Positions 9,613 to 38,838 of a stretch of 64,000 nucleotides of DNA are shown in pieces; the first letter of the stretch is position 1; the number at the start of each line of letters is the position of its first letter. Both the position numbers and the translations under genes were made by a program. The notes beneath the pieces were generated by a model. It was not told where the DNA came from. It ran no database searches and saw only the letters and a program-made list of their open reading frames with translations. Origin of the DNA: Candidatus Poribacteria bacterium (GTDB lineage Bacteria; Poribacteria; WGA-4E; WGA-3G); contig CAXXUA010000007.1 of the NCBI GenBank assembly GCA_963663765.2, positions 32,001-96,000 on the forward strand. Reading direction: 5' to 3'.

Positions 9613-11697
9613 TTAATCAATTCGTCTTCGTTGATAAAGGAACCATTCAACCACTGTTAGAATAACGGCAAAAAACACTAAATAAATCCAAGGCGGATAA
9701 CGGAATAACGAACTCCCACTTAGTATTTCTGCATCTGTTATAAGGTCTTCAATTTCTTCTACAATATCAATATGAGATTCTGTTTCACTTGCGAGATTAA
9801 CTGCCCATACCTGTTCTGGTTCTTCGGTTTCTGCTTCATCAGTAGTGGGTTCATCAGGTTTTTCTGTATTCGGTTTGTCAGTTATATCCGTTGTTGCTTG
9901 TTCTGAAATAGACAGTGCGTAAAATCCTGCTCTTTGTGTGTTATCAAAGATCATCTCGTCATTCTCAATTGGTATGTCCCACGTTTCTTCTCCTGGACCT
10001 GTTATCTTTACAGTTTCCTGTGTATTTTCAACTGTGGTTTCAGTTTCTTGTTCTGTTTCGGTATCTTGTGTAATCTGTGGCTCAACTTTATAGCGAAGCA
10101 CTTCACCCGTGTGTAAATGATATTCCTCCATACCTTGTTTCTGTTGAAACCATTGAATCGTATTTGCCATTATGACAGGGAATGCGATTCTTAGCGGTAA
10201 GTCAGATTCCAAGATATTGATTGCTGCAAAAACAATTTTTCTATTTGGTGTTACATCCACAAAAATGACTGGTGAGTCAAAAGAACGTGCTAAGACTTGT
10301 GCGGTAGATGGAGGTGTAATATGATATGCCTCTCCGATGAGTACATTCTCCAAATGAACGTGTCGCAGGACGGGATGTGTGCGTTCCCAGTCTGTGATAA
10401 TTGGGGTATCAAGTGGGTTCCCTATATTCCAGACTATTTCGGGTTTTACAGCATTTTCTTCAGGCGTCTCATTGTTTTTTGGAGGATAGATGAACATGTA
10501 ATTTCCATCATCAAGCGTGTTTGGACTGTAGCGATCAAAAATCACGACTTCAGCTGTCAGTGCGGAAGATTCATATTCCTCAGGAGTTGTAATGGTAAGG
10601 TCTAATTTTTCATCAACGGAAAGTGCTTTTTCAAGAAACGGATTTTCGTTTGTCACCAGTAGCGCAGAGATTAGTTCACGTTTTGGTAGCGTTGCATAAG
10701 CCACATTATCAGTGATGAGTATGTCTTGAATGTCTAATACAGCTTTTAGTTCGCCGCCTTCAAATGCAAAATTACTGAAGATTTCTGATTTCTTTTCTCC
10801 GGGTGCGAGCGTGTAAGGTCGGACATCAAAAAGATTATCGTTGAAATAGAGTTCAACACTACACTGTTTTTCTTCATCAGATGCGTTTACGACGGTGAGC
10901 AAAGTTTCGTAATCGAATGCGTTTACGATGCTTTTTCGGACGCGAAATTGCGTAATGCCGACGTTATCACTTTTTTCACCTATCCTGATAAGATGCAATT
11001 TTATCTTTTTTTGCTCTTGTTGGTCTTCTTCTGTAGTTTCATTCTCGGTGAGTGTATCTTGGAACTGTGTGATTAATTGTTCTTGTACTGAGTGAAAGTC
11101 ACTCATCACAATAATTTCTGGGTTAGGTTTTGTTTCTGCCACAGAATAAGCTAAATCCACAGCGGGTTTTATATCTGTTTTTATATCAGTAGGTTTGATA
11201 GATTCAATTGCTTCTCTTAGAGTTTTTTGATGGTTGGTAAAAGGGGTATGGATTACAGGAAGTGTATGACAACTAATGATTGTCATCTCGTCCATGAAAC
11301 GAAGTTGTTGGACTATCTGTAATGCTTGTTCTTTTGCAGAGTCTAAACGTGTTTCTGAAGTAGGATTCTCAGGTTCAAGTTCCAAAACAGCATTCATACT
11401 TGCTGAATGATCAACGATGAGTATGAGTTGTCTTGCCGACTTTGTCATGAATGCGAATTGTGGACGTGCAACTGCTAAGACTAAAAGTAACAGGAATAGT
11501 AATTGAAGCAATAACGACAATAAATGCTTAAGTCTTTGAAAGAGTGATGTCGTCTGTCTTTCTTTGAATAACTGTTCCCAAAACATCAAAGTAGAGACAG
11601 GTTCACGTCGTCTGCGCAGTTTTAGGATGTACAGCGCGATGATAGGTGCAGCAAGAGCAAATAGGAAAAGCGATGTGGGAGCAAGAAAATTCATCAA
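9613..11697 (-). CDS. BatA/VWA domain membrane protein
   Basis: BatA N-terminus (PIIALYILK...STLMFW...LLVLAVARP), DHSASM MIDAS, C-terminal EW TM segment. Confidence 0.88.
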   Translation of the reverse strand: MMNFLAPTSLFLFALAAPIIALYILKLRRRREPVSTLMFWEQLFKERQTTSLFQRLKHLLSLLLQLLFLLLLVLAVARPQFAFMTKSARQLILIVDHSASMNAVLELEPENPTSETRLDSAKEQALQIVQQLRFMDEMTIISCHTLPVIHTPFTNHQKTLREAIESIKPTDIKTDIKPAVDLAYSVAETKPNPEIIVMSDFHSVQEQLITQFQDTLTENETTEEDQQEQKKIKLHLIRIGEKSDNVGITQFRVRKSIVNAFDYETLLTVVNASDEEKQCSVELYFNDNLFDVRPYTLAPGEKKSEIFSNFAFEGGELKAVLDIQDILITDNVAYATLPKRELISALLVTNENPFLEKALSVDEKLDLTITTPEEYESSALTAEVVIFDRYSPNTLDDGNYMFIYPPKNNETPEENAVKPEIVWNIGNPLDTPIITDWERTHPVLRHVHLENVLIGEAYHITPPSTAQVLARSFDSPVIFVDVTPNRKIVFAAINILESDLPLRIAFPVIMANTIQWFQQKQGMEEYHLHTGEVLRYKVEPQITQDTETEQETETTVENTQETVKITGPGEETWDIPIENDEMIFDNTQRAGFYALSISEQATTDITDKPNTEKPDEPTTDEAETEEPEQVWAVNLASETESHIDIVEEIEDLITDAEILSGSSLFRYPPWIYLVFFAVILTVVEWFLYQRRRID

Positions 11698-11738
11698 TAT
11701 ATAATTTGCACTGGTAAGTGAATATTATGTGAAATCAA

Positions 11739-12629
11739 CTATGAAACAAAACCACCCATACGGAAAATTCTCAGGATCAGTTCTTCAAAAGGTGTTTTTG
11801 TCATTGTTCGTACGATGCTAATCTCACGTTGTGTGCAGTATCTGTCAATGTCATCACAGTATTTTTGGAAAAGAGCTTGGTAACGTTTTATGTGATTTTC
11901 ATTGATAGTAACAGGACGGAGTTGATTAGTTTCGACATCAACAAGGTGATAATCTCCAAGAAGATTGGGTTCTGCTTCCTTTTCATCAATAATATGTACG
12001 ACAAAAAGATCATGCTTTTGAAATTTCAACATATTGAGTCCAGCAGTAAACCCCTTTGGATCGAATAGATCGGATATAACGACGACCAACCCTCTGCGTT
12101 TTGTAAAATGCACGAAATTACGGAAAGCGTGTTCAAGATCTGTTTCCCCTGTGCAATTGATCTGATCAAGGAAATTGAGAACGGTAAAGATTTTTCCTTT
12201 TCCACGTTCTGTTGGTAACCGAGTTGTGTCGGTGGTGTTAAATGCGGTAATCCCGATTCGGTCGAGATTTGAGAGTCCGATGTATGCAAGGGCAGCTGCG
12301 ACGCGTTTGGCGTAAGTCAGTTTTGGCAGCTCACCGTAGGTCATGGATTGGCTGACATCTACGAGGAAATAGATGTGTAAGTCCTCGCGTTCCTCATATA
12401 GTTTTAACAGGAGTTCGTCTAACCGTGCAAAAGCGTTCCAATCAATATAGCGGAAATCATCACCTGGTGTATAGTTGCGATAGTCTGCAAACTCAACACT
12501 TACACCCCGACGTGTGCTGCGGCGTTCAGCTTTGATCCGACCTGAAAATATTTTTTTTGAGACAATATAAAGGTATTCAAGCTTTTTTAAGAAATCACTG
12601 TCAAATGCGGATTCTGTTTCGTTATTCAT
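11739..12629 (-). CDS. DUF58 domain protein
   Basis: SVEFADYRNYTPGDDFRYIDWN, DVSQSM, VVISD. Likely start MNNE at 12629. Confidence 0.92.
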   Translation of the reverse strand: MNNETESAFDSDFLKKLEYLYIVSKKIFSGRIKAERRSTRRGVSVEFADYRNYTPGDDFRYIDWNAFARLDELLLKLYEEREDLHIYFLVDVSQSMTYGELPKLTYAKRVAAALAYIGLSNLDRIGITAFNTTDTTRLPTERGKGKIFTVLNFLDQINCTGETDLEHAFRNFVHFTKRRGLVVVISDLFDPKGFTAGLNMLKFQKHDLFVVHIIDEKEAEPNLLGDYHLVDVETNQLRPVTINENHIKRYQALFQKYCDDIDRYCTQREISIVRTMTKTPFEELILRIFRMGGFVS

Positions 12630-12713
12630 ATTAAAACCTTGTGTATTATGGGAATCAATAGGCAACAAATATTACGGGTTACTCACTACGCGAAAAGAAT
12701 CAGACAGGAAGTA

Positions 12714-13697
12714 TTATTCAACGACATCTAACAGATGGTGAATGATACCGTCGGGGTCAATTCCTTCTGCTTCGCCTTCAAAACTCAGGATGAGTCTGTG
12801 ACGTAGACTGGGTAAAGCCACAGTTTGTATGTCTTCACGAGCGACGTTATATCTACCGTCGAGAATGGCACGAACCTTACTTGCCAAAATTAATGCTTGT
12901 GCACCGCGTGGACTTGAACCATAACGTACATACTGTTTTGTCATTTCTGGTGCGTCATCAGCTTCTGGGTGTGTTCCTAAAACCAGACGTAATGCGTATC
13001 TACGTATATCTTCTGCTATGAGAATGTCGCGTACAATCAATTCCAAATCATTTATTTGCTGACCATGACTGACTTTTCCAACCGCAGGCATTTCACGTTT
13101 TGTGGTGCGTTCCATGACAAGGTCAAGTTCATCAAGTGTTGGGTATTCAACTTTTAGTTTGAAAAAGAATCGGTCCAGTTGTGCTTCAGGTAAGGGATAT
13201 GTGCCTTCCATTTCTAATGGGTTCTGTGTAGCCATTACAAAGAAGGGCAAATCCAATTTGCGATGCTGTCCTGCGACAGTAACAGATTTTTCTTGCATTG
13301 CTTCTAACAGTGCTGATTGTGTTTTGGGTGTTGCACGGTTTATCTCATCAGCAAGGACAAGATTTGCAAAGATAGGTCCAGGTTGGAATTCAAAGAACTT
13401 TTGCCCAGTTTCATCTTCTGCTACAATAGTCGTCCCCACAATATCTGCAGGCATTAGGTCGGGTGTAAACTGAATTCGTTGAAATTCAAGGTCAAGGACT
13501 TCTTTGAGAGTGCTGATGAGTAGTGTTTTACCTAAGCCAGGAACTCCTTCTAAGAGTGCATGTCCACCTGTCATAAGGCATATTAGAACACCTTCAATAA
13601 TTTCCTTTTGACCGACGATTCGCTTAGATACCTCTTCATGTATCTTCAAGAAGGTCTCACGGAATTCTTCATGTTTTTGTTCAATTTGTTCGGACAT
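12714..13697 (-). CDS. moxR: MoxR family AAA+ ATPase
   Basis: LLEGVPGLGKT, RIQFTPDLMPAD, LADEINRA, ATQNPLEMEGTYPLPEAQLDRF. Confidence 0.95.
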   Translation of the reverse strand: MSEQIEQKHEEFRETFLKIHEEVSKRIVGQKEIIEGVLICLMTGGHALLEGVPGLGKTLLISTLKEVLDLEFQRIQFTPDLMPADIVGTTIVAEDETGQKFFEFQPGPIFANLVLADEINRATPKTQSALLEAMQEKSVTVAGQHRKLDLPFFVMATQNPLEMEGTYPLPEAQLDRFFFKLKVEYPTLDELDLVMERTTKREMPAVGKVSHGQQINDLELIVRDILIAEDIRRYALRLVLGTHPEADDAPEMTKQYVRYGSSPRGAQALILASKVRAILDGRYNVAREDIQTVALPSLRHRLILSFEGEAEGIDPDGIIHHLLDVVE

Positions 13698-13785
13698 AAT
13701 TCTCCCTACAGGTAGTAGTGATTCTACGTTAAATCACCGCAAAGATAGGGTATCTCTGCGGTGATTTTGGTCAGGTACTCAGTTC

Positions 13786-15270
13786 CTACTCATCAGTCGG
13801 TTTAATTGATTCAAAGTAGCGTTTCACGTAGAACTTATATCCGAGTGGGATCTGTTCTTCTGTGAGAGCATCTTCAGAAAGTTTCTGATACTTCATATAT
13901 GCATCTTTATAACTGAGTGAAGACTCTTGTCCTTCAGCGGATGCTTTTTCGGTTTGAACAGTAGAACTTCCTTCACCTTGAACACCTTTGATATGTTCAA
14001 GATTTAGGGTAGAATCAAGAGAGGTTAGTTTACCAAGTTGTGATTCAGTAGTTTTATTGCCTGCACTATTACTGGGTTGATTTGACAACAGATTTGTTAG
14101 ACCTGTAGCGGGATTTACACCTTTACCTGCGCAACATGCTGCGATACATGCTTTGCATTCCTCACATGCACACAACAAGTCTGTCAACTTTTGATTACGG
14201 TTTTTGAGAAGATCAAAATCGCGTAGGCTTTTGCTGACTTGACTTAATTTCTGCTGTGTACCCTCTGAATCGTTACCTTCCATTGCTTCACCAGCACCGG
14301 CAAGTTGTCCTCCGAGGCCTTCAAGGTCGGTATCTTTCACTGTTTTTCCAGCGCGTTTGAGTTCATCAGATAGGTTTTGCTTTTTTTCCTGCTCAAACTT
14401 AGGGACATCTTTTGCGACTTTATCAAGTTTTTCAGCTGCTTTATCGTAATCTCCACGTTTAAGCTGCTGTCCGAAATCGTTGAGTATAGGATTACCGATG
14501 AATTCCTGTCCGAGTCCTTTCATAAGTTCTTCTTGCTGTGCCATCTTAAGTGGATCAACTTTTGTTTTTAGCAAAGCTGCTAATTCGGTCATTCTCTTAA
14601 GAGCGTCCTTAGGAAGGATCTCGGGTTTTTTCAATTCTTGGGTTCTTTTTTCAATTTCTTCCAAGATTTCTTTGAGTTCTTGGTCTTCAGTCTGTTCAGC
14701 TTCTTTTTTTGCTTCTTCAATAGTCTTCAATAAAGTGTCTGCTTCCGCTGCGATTTGCGGCGAATAGTCAATTTCAGAAGTAGCTTGCGGTGTAAAAAAC
14801 TCAACAAACGAGAAAGCCACGAGAAATACTGCTACAAGTGCAAAGTATTTTGTTTCGCGTGGGACAACATATCGTGCAACTTTTTTGATTGATATGCTCT
14901 GTAACCAATTTGCTGTATCTTGAAGCTGCAACGCAGTTAAGGATTCATTTGTTTTTCGTTCAATCTGTTCTAAACCACTAATAACACGATCTTTAAGTGA
15001 TGCGTCAACATCAATTGCATGTGCTGCTTGGTGGAGATCAATCGGACGAATGAGTCGGTAGACAAAAGCAATAACGCAGATTCCGCCTGCGACACCGAGG
15101 AACACCAGAGGTGAAATATTAAAAGAGGTCATAACACTATCAACAATAACTACCGGGACACATATCAATAGTCCGTATAGGAGAAACATCGCAAGTGTTT
15201 GTAAATAACTTTGAACGTTTAAACGTCGACGCACTTGTTGAATTTTTTCAAGAATCAATTTTTCCTGCAT
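13786..15270 (-). CDS. Membrane-anchored coiled-coil protein of the MoxR cluster
   Basis: N-terminal TMs, long coiled coil, Cys-rich patch, C-terminal IPLGYKFYVKRYF. Confidence 0.7.
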   Translation of the reverse strand: MQEKLILEKIQQVRRRLNVQSYLQTLAMFLLYGLLICVPVVIVDSVMTSFNISPLVFLGVAGGICVIAFVYRLIRPIDLHQAAHAIDVDASLKDRVISGLEQIERKTNESLTALQLQDTANWLQSISIKKVARYVVPRETKYFALVAVFLVAFSFVEFFTPQATSEIDYSPQIAAEADTLLKTIEEAKKEAEQTEDQELKEILEEIEKRTQELKKPEILPKDALKRMTELAALLKTKVDPLKMAQQEELMKGLGQEFIGNPILNDFGQQLKRGDYDKAAEKLDKVAKDVPKFEQEKKQNLSDELKRAGKTVKDTDLEGLGGQLAGAGEAMEGNDSEGTQQKLSQVSKSLRDFDLLKNRNQKLTDLLCACEECKACIAACCAGKGVNPATGLTNLLSNQPSNSAGNKTTESQLGKLTSLDSTLNLEHIKGVQGEGSSTVQTEKASAEGQESSLSYKDAYMKYQKLSEDALTEEQIPLGYKFYVKRYFESIKPTDE

Positions 15271-15483
15271 TAAGAAAACCTCCTGTAAGACACAGTTAGT
15301 TTAAAACAGTTTTTCTTTACGGTTTTGTTAACTATGCTAGTGAGACGTTGCTGATCATGTAAATTGGAGTAATCATCAAATAAGGGTAATTTCTGAGTTT
15401 TTAACATTGTATTACATTAATAACCTTCATGTCAAGCATAAAATCAATATTTTTTCACATTTTTTCATATTTTCGTTGAATTC

Positions 15484-17568
15484 TCATTTATTTTTGAGTT
15501 TTTCCCAGTCCCACATGATGACTGTGCCATCGTTTGAGGTACTTGCGAGTATTTTTCCATCGTGAGAAAACTGTAGTTTTTCAACTTTGTTTGAATGTCC
15601 TGAATAGGTAGTGATTGTCTTTGCAGTTTGTACATCCCACAATCTAATTCCGTTAATGATTTCAGATGCCCATCCAAAGCGACCTTGTATATTTCTTCGC
15701 TCTTCAATTCCTCCGAGCAGCGTTTTCCCATCTGGTGAGAATGTTAATGCAAATATTTTTTCATCATATTCTAATTTAATCAAATGTTCTGTAAGAATTG
15801 TGCTGGGTGGTTTTCCGGTGTTAAGATTCCATAGATGTATTTCCCTACGAGTACCAATAGCAAGAATGGAATTATCGGGAGAAAATGCAAGGGTTTCGGC
15901 ATCATCCGTTGTAAGTTTTGAATGAATCTTAGCTTTTTTTACATCCCATATAAACGTTTCACGGTAACTTCCATCAGTTGCAAGGAAATTGCTATCAGAG
16001 GAAAACGCAATGACGGTATCTTGTGTCTTAAATTTAAAGAGTTCAGTTGCACTGTTAGTATCCCAAACGACAGAATCACCTAAGGTTTTTGCAAATACGA
16101 GAAGTCTGCTATCAGGTGAATATAGGAATTCTCTTCCACCAAATATGTGTTCTAATTGTGGTAGTTCAGTATCAGTATTCAGGTTCCAAAATCGAATAGT
16201 ATTAGTGCCTTGTGAGGCTTTTCTACCAATACTGTTACCGTTTGCAGATGTAGCAATTCTGGCGTTTAGTCTTCCATATACAGCAAAACGTGAAGCATCT
16301 GGTGAAATTGCCATTGCATCAGTGAGTGCGATCGGTGCTGCATCAAAAGTTTTTATTTTTTCTCTGGAATTAATATCCCAGGTTTGGACTTTACCGTTAA
16401 ATGTACTGGTCACAATTTTTGTGTTATCTGGTGTGAATGCAACTGATTTTGATCCCATCACATGATCGGTAGCAAAAACAGACAATTCTTTTGCAGTATT
16501 TATGTCCCAGAAACGTATTGTGCCGTCTAAACTACCACTTGCGAGTATTTTTCCATCAGGTGCAAAAGTCAGTGCTGTTACTGTATGTGTGTGACCGTTG
16601 AGAGTACCGTGTTTGTCACCTGTTTTTACATTCCACAAGTGAATATTTTTTCTTGCGTCACCACTGGCAAGAATCGTATTATCTTTATTGAATACAAGGG
16701 CTGTGATCCAAACAGTTTGTGCTTTGAGAGATAATTTTTGGGTATGTGCTTTTTCGGTCCATAGCCTAATATTTCCTTCGTAATCTCCTGTGGCTATGGT
16801 CTCACCGTCCTTAGAAAATTGAATACTAATCATTGAATGCCGTCTAACACGATTTCTCATATCTCCTGATCTTGAAAATTTTGAGAGAAAATTACTTGTT
16901 TTCCTACCGAGTAGAACACCTGGATTACGTGCTTCCGGAAATAGTAGATTTACTTTCCCCTCTTGAGAAACACCAGCAAAAATGTTTTTTTCCACGTTGT
17001 ATGTCAAAGGAAGCCCAAAACCTGTGATGGAATCTCTTGACAACACTCTGGAAGTTTTAACATTCCATCGTTTTATTACATTCTCTGTTGACATGATTGT
17101 AAACAGACCAAAAAGCTCTTTTCCATCCTTTGAGAAAGCCAATACATTCGCATTAACATTCACTTCTCCACTAAGAGATAGTCTTTTTTTGCCAGTATTC
17201 AGATCCCACAGAATTACTTTCCTACTATTGCAGCCACTACTTGCAAGTGTATTTTGGTCAGGAGAAAGTGCAAAGTTGTCAACACCACCGGGATGAGGTG
17301 TAAGCAAATGTTTTACGTTTCCTGTGTTGACTTCGTAAATCCACACTCCGATATCCGATCCTACTGCAAGGAGAGAACCATTGTCCAAAAATTGCAATTT
17401 GGTTATTTTTCCTTTACCCAATCTTGCAATTGCACCTTCAGGTAGGTTAACTTGGGTTTCTGACTGAGCAGAGATCGGAGTAACAAAAATGGTTAAGTAA
17501 AGAAAGACGACAAAAAATAGTCGTAAAATGTTAATTTGGAAATAGTTTATATTGCGCATATCTAACAT
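15484..17568 (-). CDS. Secreted WD40-repeat protein (divergent repeats)
   Basis: Signal peptide, LPEGAIARLGKG motif, multiple GH...FSPDG...WD repeats. Confidence 0.88.
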   Translation of the reverse strand: MLDMRNINYFQINILRLFFVVFLYLTIFVTPISAQSETQVNLPEGAIARLGKGKITKLQFLDNGSLLAVGSDIGVWIYEVNTGNVKHLLTPHPGGVDNFALSPDQNTLASSGCNSRKVILWDLNTGKKRLSLSGEVNVNANVLAFSKDGKELFGLFTIMSTENVIKRWNVKTSRVLSRDSITGFGLPLTYNVEKNIFAGVSQEGKVNLLFPEARNPGVLLGRKTSNFLSKFSRSGDMRNRVRRHSMISIQFSKDGETIATGDYEGNIRLWTEKAHTQKLSLKAQTVWITALVFNKDNTILASGDARKNIHLWNVKTGDKHGTLNGHTHTVTALTFAPDGKILASGSLDGTIRFWDINTAKELSVFATDHVMGSKSVAFTPDNTKIVTSTFNGKVQTWDINSREKIKTFDAAPIALTDAMAISPDASRFAVYGRLNARIATSANGNSIGRKASQGTNTIRFWNLNTDTELPQLEHIFGGREFLYSPDSRLLVFAKTLGDSVVWDTNSATELFKFKTQDTVIAFSSDSNFLATDGSYRETFIWDVKKAKIHSKLTTDDAETLAFSPDNSILAIGTRREIHLWNLNTGKPPSTILTEHLIKLEYDEKIFALTFSPDGKTLLGGIEERRNIQGRFGWASEIINGIRLWDVQTAKTITTYSGHSNKVEKLQFSHDGKILASTSNDGTVIMWDWEKLKNK

Positions 17569-24798: not shown

Positions 24799-26160
24799 TT
24801 ATTCAAGTCTAAGGGCGATCGCACGTCTATACCGTGCAGTCGCGACCATGTAATCATGTATCGCTTGTAACCGATTCACTTGGGTTTGGGTATAGGACAG
24901 CTCAACGTCTGTCAACTCAACACCCGTAATCATGCCCGCTTCATGTTTTACATTGGCAATTCGTAAGCCTTCTGCGGCTTGCTCAACAATTCCCTCTTGT
25001 GCTGCAATCAATTCCGCAGCAGCTGCCAGATCAAAGGCAGCGGATTTTGTCTCAAGTTTGATACTGTCAATAAGCCGGTCTTTATTTGTTTGAACCTGAT
25101 CTAACTTCACACGCGCTTGCTTCACACGCGAACGTGTCGCTAATCCGTCAAATATCGGAAACGAAATCGACATGCCAACACTCCAAGATGTATCAAGCGA
25201 TTGTCTCTCATTGTCATTGAACACATAGCTGCCATAAGATGACACTTTCGGCTTATCCCCGGCTTTTGCCACCTTTACCTGTGCCTCGCTAATCCGTTCC
25301 TGTAGGTTTAGCTGCTGGATTTCAGGACGGTGCACAACAGCTCTTGTGATCGCAGCGTCAAGCTCTACATCTTTAATTTCAGCCTGTAGGCTACCCGAAA
25401 GCGAGATCGGCTGCTCAGGTGAAAGCCCCAGTGTCAATTTGAAGTTTTCAACCGCAAGTTTGTGCTGATTACGCGCTTGAATCAATTGTGAACGGCTATT
25501 GACAACTTGCACATTGGCACGGATCACTTCCAACCGTGTCGTTGCCCCCATCGCTTTTTGTTGCGCTGCGAGTTTATGCCGTTTTTCTACTTGTGCGAGC
25601 GACTGTTCCGATACCTTAACAAAGGCTTCTGCCAACAGCACACCGTAAAACGCCTGCTGCACCTTCAACTCCGTATCGAGATGAACGGCTATCAACTTGC
25701 GTTCTGTTACAAGCTTGCCTAGTACCGCCTGCTTATACGTGTTGCTCAGCTGCCCCCACGTAAAAATCTGCTGTGACACACGGGCTTGACCCAGAATATT
25801 ATGCACAGCCCCCATCTGAAATTCTATCGTTTCCATGTCCGTACCACTACCACTTGATGAAGCGTCCGGTGTGCCGCTCAGCACGGATAACAATTCACTA
25901 TCTAACACAATCGTCGGTAAATCACCGTTGAATGTATAACTTGTATCTAACGACAAACGCGGTAAAAACGCAGCACGCGCCTCTTTGATTTTCGCATCTG
26001 CAAGTTCAACATCTTTTTTTGCCACTTGATACTCGTGACTATGACTCAATGCATGACGAATACCGTCTGCCAGTGTAAAAGTTTGTTCTGCTTCTTGTGC
26101 CAATACGATAATAGGGACAAGCAACAGAAATACACAATATGCGAGTGTTCTTCTAAACAT
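24799..26160 (-). CDS. TolC family outer membrane efflux protein
   Basis: Signal peptide, ARAAFLPRLSL, SFPIFDG, two OEP repeats; GGAGG SD before the ATG at 26160. Confidence 0.92.
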   Translation of the reverse strand: MFRRTLAYCVFLLLVPIIVLAQEAEQTFTLADGIRHALSHSHEYQVAKKDVELADAKIKEARAAFLPRLSLDTSYTFNGDLPTIVLDSELLSVLSGTPDASSSGSGTDMETIEFQMGAVHNILGQARVSQQIFTWGQLSNTYKQAVLGKLVTERKLIAVHLDTELKVQQAFYGVLLAEAFVKVSEQSLAQVEKRHKLAAQQKAMGATTRLEVIRANVQVVNSRSQLIQARNQHKLAVENFKLTLGLSPEQPISLSGSLQAEIKDVELDAAITRAVVHRPEIQQLNLQERISEAQVKVAKAGDKPKVSSYGSYVFNDNERQSLDTSWSVGMSISFPIFDGLATRSRVKQARVKLDQVQTNKDRLIDSIKLETKSAAFDLAAAAELIAAQEGIVEQAAEGLRIANVKHEAGMITGVELTDVELSYTQTQVNRLQAIHDYMVATARYRRAIALRLE

Positions 26161-26504
26161 ATACACCTCCAAAATTGTTTATTTGTCAGATTTATAGTAA
26201 ACCTTGAAATTAATGAGACATTTTCTGATTGTAGTACATTCTGTTAGATTGCGTATCTCGTAGCACATCCTTCCATATTGTGTTTGTTCAATCACTATGG
26301 TGAATCATAGAATTATATCTACACTTTCTATCAACGGTAGGCGAGGTTTCCCAACCGAACCGGTGTTTGTTCAGTCTCATGGATGTGGTTTGGAAACTGC
26401 ATCTACCGGGGAGTGTGCACGTATTTTACATTTCACCATATATGAATATGCCAAATAAGTGGGACGTGTCATGCAAAAGGTAAAAACCCACGTCCCATAA
26501 GTTT

Positions 26505-27216
26505 TTACATACGCTTAATTTTACCCCAAGTAGTTGTAAGTTTTTCTAAATGAGTAACCGACGTAACGTTTACCCTCAAAATTTCAATCTCTCTTACACT
26601 TAAACTTCTATTATACAAACGAAATTCATCAACTAATCCCAACCAAGAACCATTTGTATCTTTAGCACCTTTACCAACTATGAGTTTTACAACATCAGAC
26701 ACTTCGCCTTCAGTCGCATCACTATTATGCGTAGGGGTGTCATCAAATATACCATTGATATGCAAAGACAGTTTTTGACCGCTTTCCCAAGAATATGCGA
26801 TGTGTTGCCATTCCGTTGTTTGCACATCGCTTTTACTTTCATAGGTTTGCGTGCCACCTATAGTTATCAGGGTCGCTTGATGACATCTACTCCACCCTTC
26901 ACATCCCAACTGGATTTGTCATAGCGTAAACCGAAAACCTCGTCTTTACCTTAAGGATCAATCCCCATCAGGAGACCTCTGTCGTGATTCGTTTCAGTTG
27001 ACTTTACCCACACAGAGACAGTGAAAGCAGTAAGACCATTGATATAATTGCCACCGTTTTCATCAACAACACAACCATCGTTACCGTCCAGACTGATAGC
27101 ACCGTCATGCCTGCCTTTTGTAGACAATCATTCAGCACCGCCTATCAGTTCAGCGTTGTGGACGTTGCCACTATCATCAGACACAGCGTTACCCTTCGTT
27201 TCGTCAAACGGATATT
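26505..27216 (-). pseudogene. LamG/ConA-like secreted protein, degraded
   Basis: YPFDETKGNAVSDDSGN...FTVSVWVK...WQHIAYSW...VDEFRLYNRSLS...KLTTTWGKIK with in-frame stops and a frameshift; 5' end cut off at a REP pair. Confidence 0.8.
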
Positions 27217-27300
27217 GTAGGTCGGGTAGAGCGTGCGAAACCCCACACGCATCTACTTATCATCAGTAAAGTCGGGTTTCGTGCATCTACCCGATCTACA
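27217..27300. repeat. Inverted GTAG-type REP pair
   Basis: TGTAGGTCGGGTAGAG...GAAACCC / GGGTTTCG...CTACCCGATCTACA. Confidence 0.75.
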
Positions 27301-27332: not shown

Positions 27333-27460
27333 TTACTTCAAACTAACCATTTTACGCAGGAAAGACACACTGTCTGCCTGCAGCTGATAAAAATAGATAC
27401 CGTTTGCCACGCGTTCACCGAGATTGTTCCGACCATCCCAATGCGCAGCACGACTACGCT
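27333..27460 (-). pseudogene. Orphan copy of the FlgD-like C-terminal domain
   Basis: RAAHWDGRNNLGERVANGIYFYQLQADSVSFLRKMV; DNA near-identical to 29623-29740; fused to a REP. Confidence 0.8.
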
Positions 27461-27730: not shown

Positions 27731-29599
27731 TTACCTTTCTGCGGGTGTGATTTCCCACAGCAGCACGGTGCCATCATCACTCGCACTTGCGATTGTGGTG
27801 CCATCCGGACTAAAAGATACGTTATAGACCCTACGTGTATGGCCTGATAATGTTCTTATGTGTGTGCCTATGTCTACGTTCCACAAACGGATGGTTGTGT
27901 CCCAACTTCCACTTGCGATTGTGGTGCCATCCGGACTAAAAGATACGCTATAGACCACACCCCTATGTCCTGATAATGTTCTTATGTGTGTGCCTGTGTC
28001 TACGTTCCACAAACGGATGGTCTCGTCCCAACTCCCACTTGCGATTGTGGTGCCATCCGGACTAAAAGATACGCTCTTGACATCTCTCGTATGCCCTGAG
28101 AGTGTTCTTATGTGTGTGCCTGTGTCTGCCTCCCACAAACGGATGGTGTTGTCCCTACTCCCACTTGCGATTGTGGTGCCATCCGGACTAAAAGATACGC
28201 TCTCGACATCTTCCGTATGCCCTAATAGCGTTCTTATGTGCGTGCCTGTGTCTGCCTCCCACAAACGGATGGTGTTGTCCCTACTCCCACTTGCGATTGT
28301 GGTGCCATCCGGACTGAACGACACGCTCCAGACCCAATACGTATGCCCTAATAGCGTTCTTATGTGCGTGCCTGTGTCTGCCTCCCACAAACGGATGGCG
28401 TAGTCCCTACTCCCACTTGCGATTGTGGTGCCATCCGGACTAAAAGATACGCTCTCGACATCTTCCGTATGCCCAGATAGTGTTCGTATGTGCGTGCCGG
28501 TGTCTGCCTGCCACAAACGGATGGTATTGTGCACACTCGCACTTGCGATTGTGTTTCCATCCGGACTAAAAGATACGCTCTCGACATCATCCGTATGGCC
28601 AGATAGTGTTCGTATGTGTGTGCCGGTGTCGGCCTGCCACAAACGGATCTCTTGCCTACTCGCACTTGCGATTGTGTTTCCATCCGGACTAAAAGATACG
28701 CTATAGACCCTACGCGTATGCCCTGAGAGTGTTCTTAAGTGTGTGCCGGTGTCTGCCTGCCACAAACGGATGGTGGTGTCCCAACTTGCACTTGCGATTG
28801 TGTTTCCATCCGGACTAAAAGATACGCTATAGACCACACCCGTATGCCCAGATAATGTTCTTATGTGTGTGCCTGATTCTACGTTCCACAAACGGATGGT
28901 TCTGTCAAAACTTGCACTTGCGATTGTGTTTCCATCCGGACTAAAAGATACGCTCTCGACCCAATCCATATGCCCAGATAGTGTTCTTATGTGTGTGCCG
29001 GTGTCTGCCTGCCACAAACGGATGGTGGTGTCATAACTCGCACTTGCGATTATGGTGCCATCCGGACTAAAAGATATGCAATTGACCAAATCCGTATGCC
29101 CAGATAGTGTTCGTAGGTGTGTGCCGGTGTCTACGTTCCACAAACGAATCTCTTGTCCACTCCTACTTGCGATTGTGTTTCCATCCGGACTAAAAGATAC
29201 GCTATAGACATCCCCCGTATGCCCAGATAGTGTTCGTAGGTGGTTTCTTGTGTCTGCGTTCCACAAACGGATGATTCTGTCCGGCGATCCACTTCCACTT
29301 GCGATTGTGGTGCCATCCGGACTAAAGGATACGCTCTCAACATCACCCGTATGCCCTGAGAGGAGGTCAAGTTCTTCACCTGTCTGTGCATCGTAGATCC
29401 AAACACCGATACTACCTGCTACTGCCAGCTTGCTGCCATCGTGAGAATAGGCAACATTCCCAGTAATCTGTCCTTTCCCGAGACGTACTTTTGCGTCTTC
29501 GGGTAGATGCCATTGCGATGAGTCTTGGGCATAGGTGTTGGTGGTAAAGGTTAGTGTTATGAATAGTGTTATCAAGATTGAATACAATATGTTTTCCAT
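27731..29599 (-). CDS. Secreted WD40 protein with 13 highly conserved repeats
   Basis: Signal peptide; ~126-bp repeats LSGHTxxVxSVSFSPDGxTIASxSxDxTIRLW. Confidence 0.95.
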   Translation of the reverse strand: MENILYSILITLFITLTFTTNTYAQDSSQWHLPEDAKVRLGKGQITGNVAYSHDGSKLAVAGSIGVWIYDAQTGEELDLLSGHTGDVESVSFSPDGTTIASGSGSPDRIIRLWNADTRNHLRTLSGHTGDVYSVSFSPDGNTIASRSGQEIRLWNVDTGTHLRTLSGHTDLVNCISFSPDGTIIASASYDTTIRLWQADTGTHIRTLSGHMDWVESVSFSPDGNTIASASFDRTIRLWNVESGTHIRTLSGHTGVVYSVSFSPDGNTIASASWDTTIRLWQADTGTHLRTLSGHTRRVYSVSFSPDGNTIASASRQEIRLWQADTGTHIRTLSGHTDDVESVSFSPDGNTIASASVHNTIRLWQADTGTHIRTLSGHTEDVESVSFSPDGTTIASGSRDYAIRLWEADTGTHIRTLLGHTYWVWSVSFSPDGTTIASGSRDNTIRLWEADTGTHIRTLLGHTEDVESVSFSPDGTTIASGSRDNTIRLWEADTGTHIRTLSGHTRDVKSVSFSPDGTTIASGSWDETIRLWNVDTGTHIRTLSGHRGVVYSVSFSPDGTTIASGSWDTTIRLWNVDIGTHIRTLSGHTRRVYNVSFSPDGTTIASASDDGTVLLWEITPAER

Positions 29600-29622
29600 T
29601 ATTATTCTCCTTATGTTGACTG

Positions 29623-32600
29623 CTATTTCAAAATAACCATTTTACGCAGGAAAGACACACTGTCTGCCTGCAGTTGAAAAAAATAAATACCGTTCGCCAC
29701 GCGTTCACCGAGATTGTTCCGACCATCCCAATGAGCAGCACTGCTTTGGGTTATGTAGTATCCCGCCCGTTGATGCCCCAATTCCAACCGACGCACAATA
29801 ACGCCACGCGCATCGTAAATCGTAATCTGGACGTCGCTGGCATTTGCCAACTGATACGGTATCCACGTCTCCGGATTGAACGGGTTTGGATAGTTGGATA
29901 AGAGTGCAGTCGTATCAGGAGATGGCTGAGCAGACGGCGCAGCACCCTCTACATCGGTGACATTGATTGTAACGGAGATTTTATCATTTTTGGTCTTTAC
30001 ATCTATCACATAAACCGTTACACTGTAAGATGACTTCGTTTCATAATCTAAGTTTTCTTTGGTTTGCAGTTGCCCTGTTGTGCTGACAATACTGAATGAG
30101 GCTGCGTCCGTGCCACGCAGGTAATAGCTGAACGCATCCCCATCAGGATCTTTTGCACTAATCCTTCGATCAATGTTCTGACCAGGTTCAGTGTTCTCCG
30201 CTACAGAGCGAGTTGTGCTGTTACCATCTATGAACCAAGGATACCTATTTCCAATATAGCTTGCTATCGTAATTCCCGTATCCTTGTCTAATATTGTTGC
30301 GATCGAACCGAAATCGGTTATCGGATTTCCATGGAGCGTTAGATACTTCAGCATTGTGAAACCTTCCAAATATGATATATCACTAATATTGTTGTTGGCC
30401 AGATATAGAGACTTCAGTGCGGTCATATCATCAAGTGCGGATATACCGCTGATGCTGTTATTACTAAGGTTGAGGCTGGTCAGTGCGGTCATATCATCAA
30501 GTGCGGATATACCGCTGATGCTGTTATTACTAAGGTTGAGGCTGGTCAGTGCGGTCATATCATCAAGTGCGGATACATCACTGATGCTGTTATTACTAAG
30601 GTTGAGGCTGGTCAGTGCGGTCATATCATCAAGTGCGGATATATCACTGATACTGTTATGATCCAGAATTAGAAATCTTAGACCGGTTATATTTGTAAGA
30701 GAAGATATATCATTGATGCTGTTTTCACCAAGACTAAGCAATGTCAGTGCGGTCATATTTGTAAGAGGAGATATATTACTGATGCTGTTTTCATCAAGAC
30801 TAAGCGATGTCAGTGCGGTCATATTTGTAAGTGGAGATATATCACTGATATTGTTATTCGCTATTTCAAGAAATGTCAGTGCGGTCATATCATCAAGTGC
30901 GGATATATCACTGATTTTGTTGTTATTGCTAAGATTGAGGTGAGATAGTTTTGTTAGATCATCAAGTGCGGATATATCGCTGATTCTATTCCTATTAAGT
31001 TTGAGAAATGTTAGTTTTGTTAGATCATCAAGTGCGGATATATCAACAATCTTATTATTTGCTAAATCAAGGGACTGTAACTCTGTAAGATTTTCCAGCG
31101 GCGATATATCCATGATATTGATATGATAAAGACTTAGATTTGTGAGTTGTGTCAAATTTGCCAACGGTGAAATATCGGTCAAATTGTTGAATCTGAAAGA
31201 TAACCATTTCAGTGAAATAAGCCCATCAAAGTCTCCTGTTTTGAGTGATGTAATTCCTTTACTTTGAAGATCAAGGCTCGTAATTGCTGCGAGATGTTCT
31301 GGTGTCACATCTTCAGCAGAATCCACGCCTGCGGTGGTAACAATTTCATCGCGTATTTGCGGTGTGCGTTCACTTACCGGCGTAATTGTAATTTCGGTCA
31401 CATCTGTGACACTGATTGTGACAGTGATACTATCACTCCCGCCATTCTCATCGGAGACAGAAATGGTTACCGTATAAGAGGTTTTCGTTTCATAATCAAG
31501 TGCGGCATTCGTCTGTAGCTGCCCGTTCGTGTTGACGATGCTAAACGATGTCGCATCCGTACCACTGAGAGTATATGTAAGCGTATCGTTATCTGCATCG
31601 GTTGCAGCAACAGGGTCTCCGATGTTCTGTCCAGATTCCGTATTTTCCGCAACAGACCGAGTCGTACTATCGCCATCGGTGAACATCGGTGCACTATTGA
31701 CAACTTGTTGCTGTTGTGAACTGATACTACCTATGATGCTGATTGTAACAACGATAGAGTTGCTCCCGCCATTCCCATCGGAAACTGTAACCGTGACGAA
31801 GTAGGTATCCTGTTGTTCCGAATTCAGCGGTGCTTTTGTTTGTAGCTGTCCTGATGTGCTAACGATCTTAAACGCTGCTGCATCTGTCCCACCGAGACTA
31901 TAGGTGAGCGTATCGTCATCTGCATCTGTCGCAACTACCGGGTTGCCGATATCCATGTCTGCCTCTGTGTCCTCAGTGATAGAGCGAGTTGTGCTATCGC
32001 CATCAGTGAATTCAGGGGCACGGTTTTCGTCCACATCAGTGACACTAATAGTGACCTTGATACTATCTCTACCACCATTCCCATCAGACACTGTGATTGT
32101 CAAGGAATAAGATGTCTTGGTTTCATAATTTAGGGCTGATCTTGTTAGCAGCTGCCCGTTTGTAGTGTTAATGCTAAATGAGTCAGCATCCGTTCCACCG
32201 AGACTATAAGTAAGATCATCGTCATCTGCATCGGTTGCCCCAATCGCACTCCCGATATTCACGCCGGACCCCGTATTCTCCGCAACAGAGCGGGTTGTGC
32301 TATCGCCATCAGCGAACACTGGTGCGCGGTTCTCGTCTACATCTGTCACGTTGATTGTAATATCGATTTCGTCTGTGAGCGTTCCATCAGACACAGTGAT
32401 TGTGACAGAATAGGAGTCTTTTGTTTCGTAATCCAGAGCGGCTTTCGTTCGCAACTGTCCTGAGCTGCTATCAATGCCAAACGAGGCAGTATCCGTTCCA
32501 CCGAGACTATAAGTAAGATCATCGTCATCTGCATCGGTTGCCCCAATCGCACTACCGATATTCACGCCGGACCCCGTATTCTCCGCAACGGAACGCGTTG

Positions 32601-37110: not shown

Positions 37111-38838
37111 TTGAATTACAAACAAAAAGCACTGATATGTGTTCCATTCAGTTTAGTAATTTGTATTATTTTGATGTGGCAGTTTCCAAATGTAGCATCG
37201 GATGGTGGGGATGTTGTATGGCGGCAAAACGCTATACTTTCGTTGTTTTCTATTCTATTTGATTCGGATGTTGCATGGTGGTATAGCGTATTGCCACCAT
37301 TGATTGCTATCACATTAGCAGTAATTACAACGCGGTTGTTTCTTAGTCTTGGTGTTGCAGTTGGTGTTGGTGTTATACTTGCTTGGGGACAGCAAGGATT
37401 TTCGTTTAATTCTTTCTTCTCTGAGTTAATATGGTTTGCGCGTGCAGTCACCATTACTAATGATGGAATTGATCTGTTCAATTTATGGGTAATTCTGTTT
37501 GTCCTTTTCATGATGTCAATGATTACAGTTGTTATTGCCTCTGGTGGTATTGGGGGTGTCATATCTCTGTTATCTCACTTGGCAAAGGGAGCGCGTTCAA
37601 CGCAGTTCATCACTGCGATAATGGGTACGTTAATTTTCATTGGTGACTATAGCAATGCGATGCTGGTTGGTCCCACGATGCGACCCATCACTGACAAGTT
37701 CAAAGTAAGTCGAGAGAAGTTGGCATATATTGTGGATTCCACGAGTGCGCCTATCGCAGGACTTGCTTTTGTAAGCACATGGATCGGATATGAGGTTGGG
37801 TTATTTAATGACGTAGCTAAAACTATTGGATTAGATAGTGATGGTTATTCAATGTTCTTTGACGCGCTGCCGTTCCGTTTCTATTGCATATTGACGATAT
37901 TGTTCGTTATCATAAACACTATCAGTGGTCGTGATTATGGGATGATGCGGCGAGCACAGATGCGAGCAAGGGAAACGGGTAATGTTTTAGAACCTGATGC
38001 GAAAGTCATGGGAAATATTGCATCGGAGATACAAACAGGAAACATCAAAGCACAAATTCTTTCTGCAGTGATTCCTCTTACCCTTCTTTTTAGTCTGATT
38101 TTGGGTGGTTTATGGATAGATGGTAAGGGTTCAGGCTCAATTTTTTCACTGACATCTTGGCGTGATGCACTTTCAAATGCGAATAATGTAAAAATCCTTG
38201 CGACTGCTGCAATTACTTCATTTCTTGCTGCGATTATTTGTGCAAGATTGTTTTCTCAAATGACGTTTTCAGATATTTGGAAAGCAGTGAAGGAAGGTTT
38301 AACAGGAACGCTTTTACCGATTGCGATAATCCTTTGTGCATGGGGGATTAAAGCGAGTTGTGATAAACTGATGACCGGACAGTTTATCGCATCAATCATC
38401 AGTGATGTTGTTTCACCTTTGTGGTTTCCCGCACTTGTATTCGTAGTTGCTTCAATTACTTCATTTGCGACAGGAACGAGTTGGGGAACGATGGCGATTC
38501 TAATACCGACTGCAATACCGGTTGCTTTTGTACTTGATAATAACATGTATGGCCTCACGACAATTATTTGCTTGGGTGCAGTTCTGGACGGTGCAATTTT
38601 TGGAGACCACTGTTCACCTATATCAGACACAACCATTTTGAGTGCTATTGTCAGTAGTTGTGATCCGATGCATCATGTGCGGACGCAAATGCCGTACGCC
38701 CTCACTGTAGCTGTCATAGCATTAATCTGTGGTTATCTTCCCGCTGCCCTCGGATTGCCATCTTCTATCGGTATATTGATTGGAGTTAGCATCATAATAC
38801 TGTTGTTTTCTATCTTATCTCGATTACGACCAGATTGA
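37111..38838 (+). CDS. Na+/H+ antiporter NhaC family transporter
   Basis: SVLPPLIAI, SREKLAYIVDSTSAP, SFATGTSWGT, GAIFGDHCSPISDTT. Confidence 0.92.
   Translation: MNYKQKALICVPFSLVICIILMWQFPNVASDGGDVVWRQNAILSLFSILFDSDVAWWYSVLPPLIAITLAVITTRLFLSLGVAVGVGVILAWGQQGFSFNSFFSELIWFARAVTITNDGIDLFNLWVILFVLFMMSMITVVIASGGIGGVISLLSHLAKGARSTQFITAIMGTLIFIGDYSNAMLVGPTMRPITDKFKVSREKLAYIVDSTSAPIAGLAFVSTWIGYEVGLFNDVAKTIGLDSDGYSMFFDALPFRFYCILTILFVIINTISGRDYGMMRRAQMRARETGNVLEPDAKVMGNIASEIQTGNIKAQILSAVIPLTLLFSLILGGLWIDGKGSGSIFSLTSWRDALSNANNVKILATAAITSFLAAIICARLFSQMTFSDIWKAVKEGLTGTLLPIAIILCAWGIKASCDKLMTGQFIASIISDVVSPLWFPALVFVVASITSFATGTSWGTMAILIPTAIPVAFVLDNNMYGLTTIICLGAVLDGAIFGDHCSPISDTTILSAIVSSCDPMHHVRTQMPYALTVAVIALICGYLPAALGLPSSIGILIGVSIIILLFSILSRLRPD

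Follow-up and report, generated by a model that had tools for sequence, protein, structure and literature searches.

Gene A, as we call it here, lies on the minus strand of a window of 64,000 nucleotides (the whole stretch of DNA that was analysed) from Candidatus Poribacteria, a sponge symbiont (GenBank assembly GCA_963663765.2, contig CAXXUA010000007.1, positions 32,001 to 96,000). Its product is probably an intact tandem propeller, made of two WD40 rings with seven blades each and exported by Sec; in the envelope or beyond the cell, it would act as a variable module for ligand binding. The observations behind this conclusion are the anatomy of the gene, its predicted fold, the pattern of its variable codons, a pool of repeat units shared with other loci, and the size of the family to which it belongs. 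From these we infer export, a binding function, a cellular location and a class of ligands. The ligands would most plausibly be host or other foreign proteins or peptides, a guess based on the lifestyle of the organism and on the adhesin-like gene B located just upstream.

Repeat anatomy, predicted fold and variable codons of gene A

The reading frame of gene A runs uninterrupted through 622 codons (positions in Table 1), and a strong Shine-Dalgarno sequence, AAGGAG, is located ~8 nt before its ATG. When the protein was split at the motif L[SL]GH, 13 units were obtained, with lengths of 44, 41, 42, 42, 42, 41, 42, 42, 42, 42, 42, 42, and 40 amino acids. The first full unit is preceded by 79 amino acids, comprising the leader and one degenerate blade, and the protein ends 5 residues past blade 14. 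Tandem Repeats Finder (TRF) reported 12.5 copies of a 126-bp period with 86% matches, 1% indels, and a score of 1891. The Pfam family WD40 (PF00400) was matched in 13 stretches (E 5.6e-160; 513.5 bits, cut-off 27), and the framework of every blade retained the consensus WD40 residues GH, D, and W. Mean pairwise amino acid identity of the equal-length units was 0.78.

An initial annotation of this DNA had described 13 repeats nearly identical in DNA. The number of units agreed with our count, but "nearly identical" was too strong, because scaffold DNA identity among the 12 full units was 81-95%, the TRF match rate was as given above, and the proportion of synonymous differences (pS) in the scaffold was 0.21. 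The residue strings that it quoted after GH(T) and ASxS were all found in gene A. It had also described a signal peptide and no NTPase domain. This agreed with our results as well: the leader is signal-peptide-like, and no NTPase was seen among the 25 listed of the 65 matched Pfam families, all of which were WD40 or beta-propeller families.

An AlphaFold2 model was calculated from an alignment of gene A with nine paralogues from its own genome. Its mean predicted local distance difference test (pLDDT) was 93.8 and its predicted template modelling score (pTM) was 0.88. In the model, a helix at the N-terminus (residues 2-18) precedes 56 strands, which form 14 four-stranded blades; pLDDT is low at residues 17-20. 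The best Foldseek match was 2ymu_A, annotated as 'a highly repetitive propeller structure' (E 2.9e-58, 49% identity), and double seven-bladed propellers, such as processome WD proteins, were matched with TM-scores up to 0.77. By sequence, too, 2ymu was the closest solved structure (phmmer, E 8.9e-176). We numbered the units so that column 1 is the L of LSGH and one unit is 42 codons. With this numbering, the DSSP assignment of the model placed strand D at columns 39-2, the D-A loop at 3-7, strand A at 8-13, strand B at 19-24, the B-C turn at 25-27, and strand C at 28-32.

Among the 12 full units, the proportion of non-synonymous differences (pN) was highest at columns 27, 7, 25, 6, and 9 (0.64-0.51), while V8 and D26 were fixed although flanked by variable codons. 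Paoletti 2007 (PMC1805685), as far as its available text goes, reports strong positive selection at codons 7, 9, 25, and 27 of the Podospora NWD repeats and purifying selection at codons 8 and 26. The initial annotation had likened gene A to the diversifying binding faces of fungal HNWD/HET-E repeats, and the codons matched exactly, including the fixed codons 8 and 26. By the DSSP assignment, codons 7, 9, 25, and 27 map to the D-A loop, the start of strand A, and the B-C turn. The top-face interaction hotspots R1-2, R1, and D-1 of WD40 proteins, which in the accessible part of Wu 2012 (PMC3419727) support binding at the top face, correspond in gene A to columns 7, 9, and 25, as located by the V-x-S-V fingerprint and the conserved Asp. 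On the predicted propeller, variable columns 7, 9, and 25 fall at the top-face hotspots, in line with the binding face proposed in the initial annotation. This mapping used the DSSP string of the model together with published WD40 topology; distances were not part of it.

In a first Nei-Gojobori count, the columns had been picked after viewing the data, which made the count circular. It was replaced by two site sets fixed a priori from the two papers: 7, 9, 25, 27 (Paoletti) and 7, 9, 25 (Wu). For the Paoletti set, pN was 0.582 compared with a scaffold pS of 0.214. The ratio of dN in the set to dS in the rest was 4.46, and the ratio of dN to dS within the rest was 0.40; the scaffold dN/dS of gene A lay in the range of 0.21-0.40. 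The pN of the Paoletti set was reached by 1 of 20000 random four-column sets, and that of the Wu hotspots by 15 of 20000 random sets. The variation pattern at the five columns is far beyond chance, and the per-codon dN/dS across repeats, named in the initial annotation as the measure to look at, was well above 1 at codons 7, 9, 25, and 27.

Within-gene entropy also peaked at the same columns in 18 further genes of the own genome, each with at least 8 full units. In other Poribacteria, nine genes at nine loci were surveyed for their five most variable columns, which included column 7 in 9/9, column 9 in 8/9, column 25 in 7/9, column 6 in 6/9, and column 27 in 3/9; two of these records (L015 and L020) are probably one, so that maybe eight of the genes are independent. 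Among the arrays of the own genome (52 open reading frames (ORFs) with at least 5 full units), those with a scaffold pS of 0.08-0.27 had a five-column pN of 0.48-0.64, near saturation, and ratios of 2.7-10.6. In arrays with a scaffold pS of at least 0.5, synonymous sites were saturated too, and the ratio was mostly 0.5-2.4.

The residues at the variable sites were also compared with those of all ORFs. W was enriched 5.7-fold, D 3.1-fold, Y 2.4-fold, S 2.0-fold, N 1.8-fold, and R 1.6-fold, while A, V, L, I, K, P, and C were depleted. Such a mixture of aromatic and polar residues resembles the composition typical of protein-binding sites. The richness in W and the depletion of aliphatic residues speak against drift and in favour of residues selected for binding.

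A shared pool of units and the size of the family

The scaffold of gene A is not confined to gene A. In all, 110 near-full units in 24 ORFs were at least 80% identical in scaffold DNA to some unit of gene A, and these ORFs span 14-blade proteins, 7-blade lipoproteins, and the giant gene B. The five-residue signatures were nearly all different, with 104 distinct ones among the 110 units. Units of gene A matched units on other contigs as closely as they matched one another. For example, unit A11 showed 98.2% scaffold identity to unit 1 of C15_573312, with differences at 2 of 111 scaffold bases and at 10 of 15 variable-codon bases, and unit A10 showed 96.4% scaffold identity to unit 9 of C3_616598. 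The seven-bladed WD40 lipoproteins of this pool, with a leader of the form ...ACGG, were seen at C4:1160421-1165376, C6:46328-48695, and C6:350832-351926.

The nearest scaffold neighbour was in the same ORF for 65/110 units, compared with a mean of 6.6 and a maximum of 18 after shuffling of the labels, and in another ORF for the other 45/110. This result indicated that homogenisation or tandem duplication within genes dominates, and that the inter-locus part is substantial. The best matches of gene A units in other genes were non-collinear, which argues against simple duplication of the whole gene, although recent whole-gene duplication could be behind part of the unit sharing across ORFs. Codon strings at columns 6, 7, and 9 were distinct in 86/110 units, with 6 strings common to different ORFs; at columns 25 and 27, they were distinct in 73/110 units, with 16 common to different ORFs. 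Of 43 unit pairs sharing the string at 6, 7, and 9, only 15 also shared that at 25 and 27, suggesting that the two halves of the variable face are partly uncoupled. Recombination contributes, yet most variants are unique. The description of the array as recombination-diversified in the initial annotation therefore stands for the units and half-unit codon cassettes that are common to several ORFs, and does not extend to the 86 unique strings at columns 6, 7, and 9.

The pattern might also arise without positive selection, if unconstrained loops drift while crossing-over or gene conversion resets the rest of the unit; in that case, concerted evolution would have raised dN/dS artificially. The strong homogenisation within ORFs fits this explanation, as do the low ratios in arrays with a scaffold pS of at least 0.5. 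Conversion of a 126-bp unit, however, would reset codons 6-9 and 25-27 too unless their diversity is selected, and the contrast between scaffold and variable codons in the pair of A11 and C15_573312 unit 1 is hard to reconcile with such resetting. The composition at the variable sites, with its excess of W and its lack of P, C, and aliphatic residues, is far from what drift would give, and the same columns vary in independent genes, in other genomes, and in the fungal NWD repeats. We consider drift with conversion an improbable explanation.

The extent of the family was examined in the own assembly, which consists of 6.35 Mb in 15 contigs and is 97.8% complete. Six-frame translation gave 301 matches to gene A. 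ORFs of at least 150 amino acids were then scanned with a hidden Markov model (HMM) made from 17 units of genes A and B: 199 contained a unit, 158 contained at least 5 units, and 55 contained at least 12. The combination of a leader and 14 blades in ~620 amino acids without a sorting domain, as in gene A, was a common architecture in the family. The closest paralogues lie in clusters at C3:610895-621890 and C15:573312-576120, where a 1353-aa ORF with 25 units was noticed; an A-like gene in these clusters is split into two ORFs of 344 and 575 amino acids, which may be a frameshift. The claim of a repertoire made in the initial annotation was borne out at the level of the genome, by the 158 ORFs and the shared unit pool.

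The expansion was present in 15/15 genomes of the same genus and in most of the order, with 14 to 314 first-look candidates per genome, over four families. The closest relative of gene A outside its own genome was 67% identical, and the best paralogue within it 77%. When neighbourhoods in related species were located by two flanking anchors with orthologues in the genus, the antiporter at 37111-38838 and the outer-membrane efflux protein at 24799-26172, none of the 4/4 neighbourhoods (G005, G006, G027, and G014) had a WD40 array. Together with the 67% identity of the closest outside relative, this points to a lineage-specific gene A, with no one-to-one orthologue among the compared genomes. 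A scan of metagenome contigs with protein A gave 56 stretches with the pattern and 0 relatives.

Gene A is one of ~150 paralogues, and its five differing residues per blade amount to ~70 variable positions, which would be spread over two composite surfaces. If this picture is right, new specificities would arise as 126-bp units are duplicated and are exchanged inside a locus or from one locus to another. The scaffold DNA would be kept alike in this way, and selection would favour or keep amino acid change at the five surface codons.

Stability between samples could be viewed through 9 public runs, of which 7 cover part of the stretch. The sequence available from them consists of Logan contigs of ~120-590 nt, beyond whose reach the order and number of units lie, and one of the runs may be the source of the assembly. 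The exact piece 28812-28938 was unchanged in four runs and the piece 29183-29323 in three, from two studies; each piece crosses the boundary between two adjacent units and includes their variable codons. The diversity of gene A lies between paralogues and not visibly between strains. For the comparison of arrays across strains proposed in the initial annotation, the checked junctions were identical in up to four runs and no strain-level switching was seen.

These data also bear on the idea that the variable codons are written by programmed switching or by a specialised mutator, for instance a diversity-generating retroelement. The variation of a few fixed codons in otherwise homogeneous, template-like sequence would suit such a mechanism. 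Against it, no RVT_1 match was found in this 97.8%-complete genome (the control was matched in 3/14 genomes), and differences at the variable codons occurred at all three codon positions and were not adenine-specific, which together make a diversity-generating retroelement very unlikely. The variation is moreover distributed over 110 units in 24 ORFs, not concentrated in one variable region, and pieces with variable codons were identical in four runs. A mutator or switch of this kind can be set aside as extremely improbable.

Putative export, cellular location and objections

The N-terminus of gene A reads MENILYSILITLFITLTFTTNTYA followed by QD, and is hydrophobic and signal-peptide-like; export by Sec is predicted from it, with a putative cleavage site between T-Y-A and QD. 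Among the 158 family ORFs with at least 5 units, 110 leaders were signal-peptide-like and 10 lipobox-like according to a crude heuristic for hydrophobic leaders, which misses obvious cases, gene B included. Several family ORFs start instead with an N-terminus like that of an extracytoplasmic function (ECF) sigma factor, and a few have no leader at all. ORFs combining an ECF-sigma-like N-terminus with 8-14 WD40 units, 850-1000 aa in length and in some cases in tandem clusters, were noted at C11:65750-81428, C5:1564731-1570313, C15:184185-193193, and C3:498898-501891, and WD40 arrays may be the sensor domains of sigma or anti-sigma fusions.

No TIGR04183 domain was found at the C-terminus of gene A; the sole match over the cut-off in the locus was the end of gene B, which is one of 59 such matches in the own genome. 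A jackhmmer search detected the B-type C-terminal sorting domain on 14/158 family ORFs, gene A not among them. The other 144/158 lack a sorting domain, so gene A is not aberrant in lacking one. By itself, a Sec leader takes a protein of a diderm cell as far as the periplasm. From its sequence, a periplasmic location of gene A appears equally possible as an extracellular one. Of the extracellular binder described in the initial annotation, the leader was found, while the extracellular location was not supported: the leader is of the Sec type only, its n-region carries E, and the C-terminal domain of the type IX secretion system (T9SS) type is missing.

Gene A might accordingly be read as a periplasmic adaptor that captures ligands or takes part in signalling, for example by feeding the ECF-sigma-WD40 fusions or by assisting gene B. 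The Sec-type leader without a T9SS-type C-terminal domain, shared with 144/158 family ORFs, suits this role, and the ECF-sigma-WD40 fusions of the genome imply that an extracytoplasmic WD40 array can act as a sensor domain. Gene A also starts just past the gene B stop, and a junction of a sorting-domain end with a leader exists at three loci (below). On the other side, lipobox-leader and sorting-domain members draw on the same unit pool, suggesting surface use too, and other routes of release are conceivable, such as vesicles or another secretion system. We regard a periplasmic adaptor as rather unlikely, but as an alternative to be kept in view.

Several points weigh against gene A as an exported, selected, variable binding module. 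As to selection, pairwise dN/dS across paralogous repeats that convert one another is not a clean selection test, and the columns of the first count were chosen post hoc, a fault that the a priori test and the survey of other Poribacteria avoid. Because homogenisation lowers the scaffold dS, part of the ratio may also represent retained diversity and not faster change. Either way, kept diversity or faster substitution at those codons requires selection on them. As to expression and variation, no RNA run is on record among the 9 public runs, and no between-sample variation was seen at the checkable unit junctions (four runs, two studies).

As to export, a diderm cell would by default keep gene A in the periplasm, since it has no T9SS-type C-terminal domain, and the case for its export is made from sequence only. 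Its n-region is M-E-N, without a positive charge, where the leaders of paralogues read MKN, that is, E2 in place of K2. The secretion machinery was also faint in the own genome. The best SprA score, 64.8 bits, fell short of the cut-off of 200, and no match was obtained for GldM or PorP, although the SprA, GldM, and PorP profiles were silent in control genomes too. Kamke et al. 2014 (PMC3909097), in its available portion, describes poribacterial WD40 proteins with a TIGR04183 tail and reports a lack of structural Por genes in Poribacteria, with which the weak SprA and the missing GldM and PorP matches agree. A 2162-aa open frame at C4:1173509-1177468 carries five collinear sub-threshold SprA matches, and may be a candidate for a divergent type IX translocon.

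Gene neighbourhood and relation to known systems

The features of the locus are listed in Table 1. The 6 LSGH units of gene B belong to the scaffold pool of gene A, and both genes have the same orientation. The TIGR04183 match on gene B is at C7:61632-61892, equal to window positions 29632-29892. Co-transcription of the two genes is likely, judging from their arrangement; the best promoter-like site (11/12, a consensus match only) is at 36630-36602, upstream of gene B. Within gene B, leucine-rich repeat (LRR) units 7-10 (30414-30915) are near-identical 66-bp copies (TRF, 3.7 copies with 97% matches), and near-identity is also seen among several of its cadherin repeats.

Table 1. Positions of gene A, its parts, and adjacent features in the window
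Feature	Position	Strand	Remarks
Gene A: leader and 14 WD40 blades (1 degenerate N-terminal blade and 13 LSGH units)	27731..29599	-	622-aa ORF, stop TAA
Gene A leader, MENILYSILITLFITLTFTTNTYA before QD, residues 1-25	29525..29599	-	hydrophobic h-region, T-Y-A c-region
Tandem array of 126-bp WD40 units	27779..29356	-	TRF; variable codons 6, 7, 9, 25, 27
Spacer between gene B stop and gene A ATG	29600..29622	-	23 nt, holds AAGGAG
Gene B, 2179 aa	29623..36162	-	same leader, 6 LSGH units, 12 cadherin stretches, LRRs, T9SS-type C-terminal domain
Orphan 3' fragment of T9SS-type C-terminal domain	27333..27452	-	from alignment to gene B; weak CHU_C and FlgD_ig matches
Broken LamG/concanavalin-like gene	26505-27250	-	in-frame stops TGA 27130 and TAA 26953, frameshift

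The orphan fragment is ~118 nt long, is ~95% identical to the 3' end of gene B, and lies ~270 nt downstream of gene A. Its similarity stops abruptly on the upstream side, which suggests recombination through sorting-domain sequence at this place. The junction consisting of a sorting-domain end, 24 nt, and a leader beginning M[KE]NILYS was also found at two other loci, three in all, indicating that the duplicated module reaches upstream of the leader. Of the LamG gene beyond the fragment, a 134-aa ORF remains after the frameshift (26505-26909; Laminin_G_3, E 4.3e-14); relatives would presumably carry Trp at its TGA stop.

Such remnants raise the possibility that gene A itself is a recently truncated, functionless product of a decaying locus, that is, a copy of a B-like or otherwise sorting-domain-bearing gene that has lost its C-terminal domain. 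The orphan piece 270 nt downstream, the broken LamG gene, the K2E change in the leader, and the lack of a syntenic counterpart in 4/4 neighbourhoods could all be read in this way. Nevertheless, no stop interrupts the 1.9-kb frame of gene A, the model shows each of the 14 blades at high confidence, the scaffold dN/dS is 0.21-0.40, the Shine-Dalgarno sequence is strong, and the architecture is common in the family. Decay is for us a very improbable account of gene A.

Farther along the window, a minus-strand cluster of BatA/VWA, DUF58, and MoxR AAA+ genes with a weak bpMoxR match was seen at 9613-17568, and a gene for an exported 694-aa WD40 protein (15484-17568) adjoins it. The consulted part of a paper on the MoxR-vWA 'ternary system' (PMC7159879) does not discuss variability of repetitive WD40 domains.

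A close likeness to gene A is found in the NWD/HNWD genes of Podospora anserina (het-d, het-e, and het-r). According to the available text of Paoletti 2007 (PMC1805685) and Dyrka 2014 (PMC4986451), these likewise consist of 42-codon units with a homogenised scaffold, exchange units within and between paralogous loci, and show the strongest non-synonymous variation at codons 7, 9, 25, and 27 of the interaction face. The fungal proteins are described there as cytoplasmic STAND NTPases (signal transduction ATPases with numerous domains), with a NACHT domain and an effector such as HET, which trigger cell death, and their alleles differ in repeat number between strains. Gene A has an export leader and neither a NACHT NTPase nor an effector, and for the lack of these two domains it is not a member of the fungal family. 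Bacteria have no repeat-induced point mutation (RIP), a process proposed as a source of mutations in fungi.

Variable lymphocyte receptors and other repeat binders resemble gene A in that a rigid repeat structure presents variable residues, rich in aromatic and polar ones, at fixed positions. Variable lymphocyte receptors are assembled somatically on a solenoid of LRRs, whereas the diversity of gene A is a germline diversity between paralogues, carried on a propeller.

Among bacterial proteins, gene A resembles the Highly-Repetitive WD40 (HR-WD40) class of Hu et al. 2017 (PMC5587647), a class reported to be highly diverse at its predicted hotspots. Like the proteins described in the accessible sections of that paper, gene A has an internal unit identity of at least 0.7, multiple propellers, and many DHSW-type units; its value of 0.78 comes from a simple measure and not from the authors' procedure with eight contiguous repeats. 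Those sections describe no secreted class, no unit pool between loci, and no Poribacteria, and the terms 'signal peptide' and 'secreted' are absent from the paper. In the Nostoc-type 2YMU, the units differ almost only at column 9, while those of gene A differ at five columns, giving 12 signatures in 13 units.

Kamke et al. 2014 (PMC3909097) report that WD40 proteins (PF00400) are highly abundant in Poribacteria and that many carry signal peptides and TIGR04183. Gene B fits this description fully, as far as the text at hand goes, whereas gene A has no TIGR04183 domain but just the orphan fragment downstream. The portion of the paper available covers abundance and domains, and reports neither a homogenised scaffold nor five hypervariable codons nor unit exchange. 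In the literature covered by titles and the starts of abstracts, the codon pattern was not described for poribacterial WD40 proteins; subscription journals and closed supplements (Tables S8-S9 of Kamke 2014) lay outside this coverage. The abundance of poribacterial WD40 proteins (2014), repetitive prokaryotic WD40 proteins with variable hotspots (2017), and concerted evolution with selection in fungi are already published. What this locus adds is the exact match of its codons with the fungal sites, a pool of 110 units in 24 ORFs across architectures, and the scale of the family.

A broader interpretation can be offered as a tentative proposal, which we think doubtful in its full extent. Poribacteria would hold a germline repertoire of ~150 genes and more than 1500 blades, coding for extracytoplasmic WD40 receptors that are diversified by unit shuffling and by selection at the five top-face codons of each blade, and that recognise changing proteins of the host, phages, or prey. 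ECF-sigma-WD40 fusions would connect some of these receptors to transcription, and the sorting-domain pathway would display others. If this were true, the family would be a bacterial, NTPase-free, exported counterpart of the recognition domains of fungal nucleotide-binding oligomerization domain-like receptors (NLRs).

The locus bears on the role of the 'eukaryote-like' repeat proteins that are abundant in sponge symbionts. It shows a class of poribacterial WD40 proteins that evolves unusually, with a scaffold homogenised over many loci and fast-changing residues predicted to face the ligand. That the same positions vary as in fungal immune receptors points to recognition of diverse or changing partners. 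The pattern also names concrete residues to mutate and surfaces for binding screens. Given that gene A would be exported, as its leader suggests, the pattern of a conserved scaffold with variable sites would be widened from cytoplasmic NLR-type proteins to exported bacterial proteins without an NTPase.

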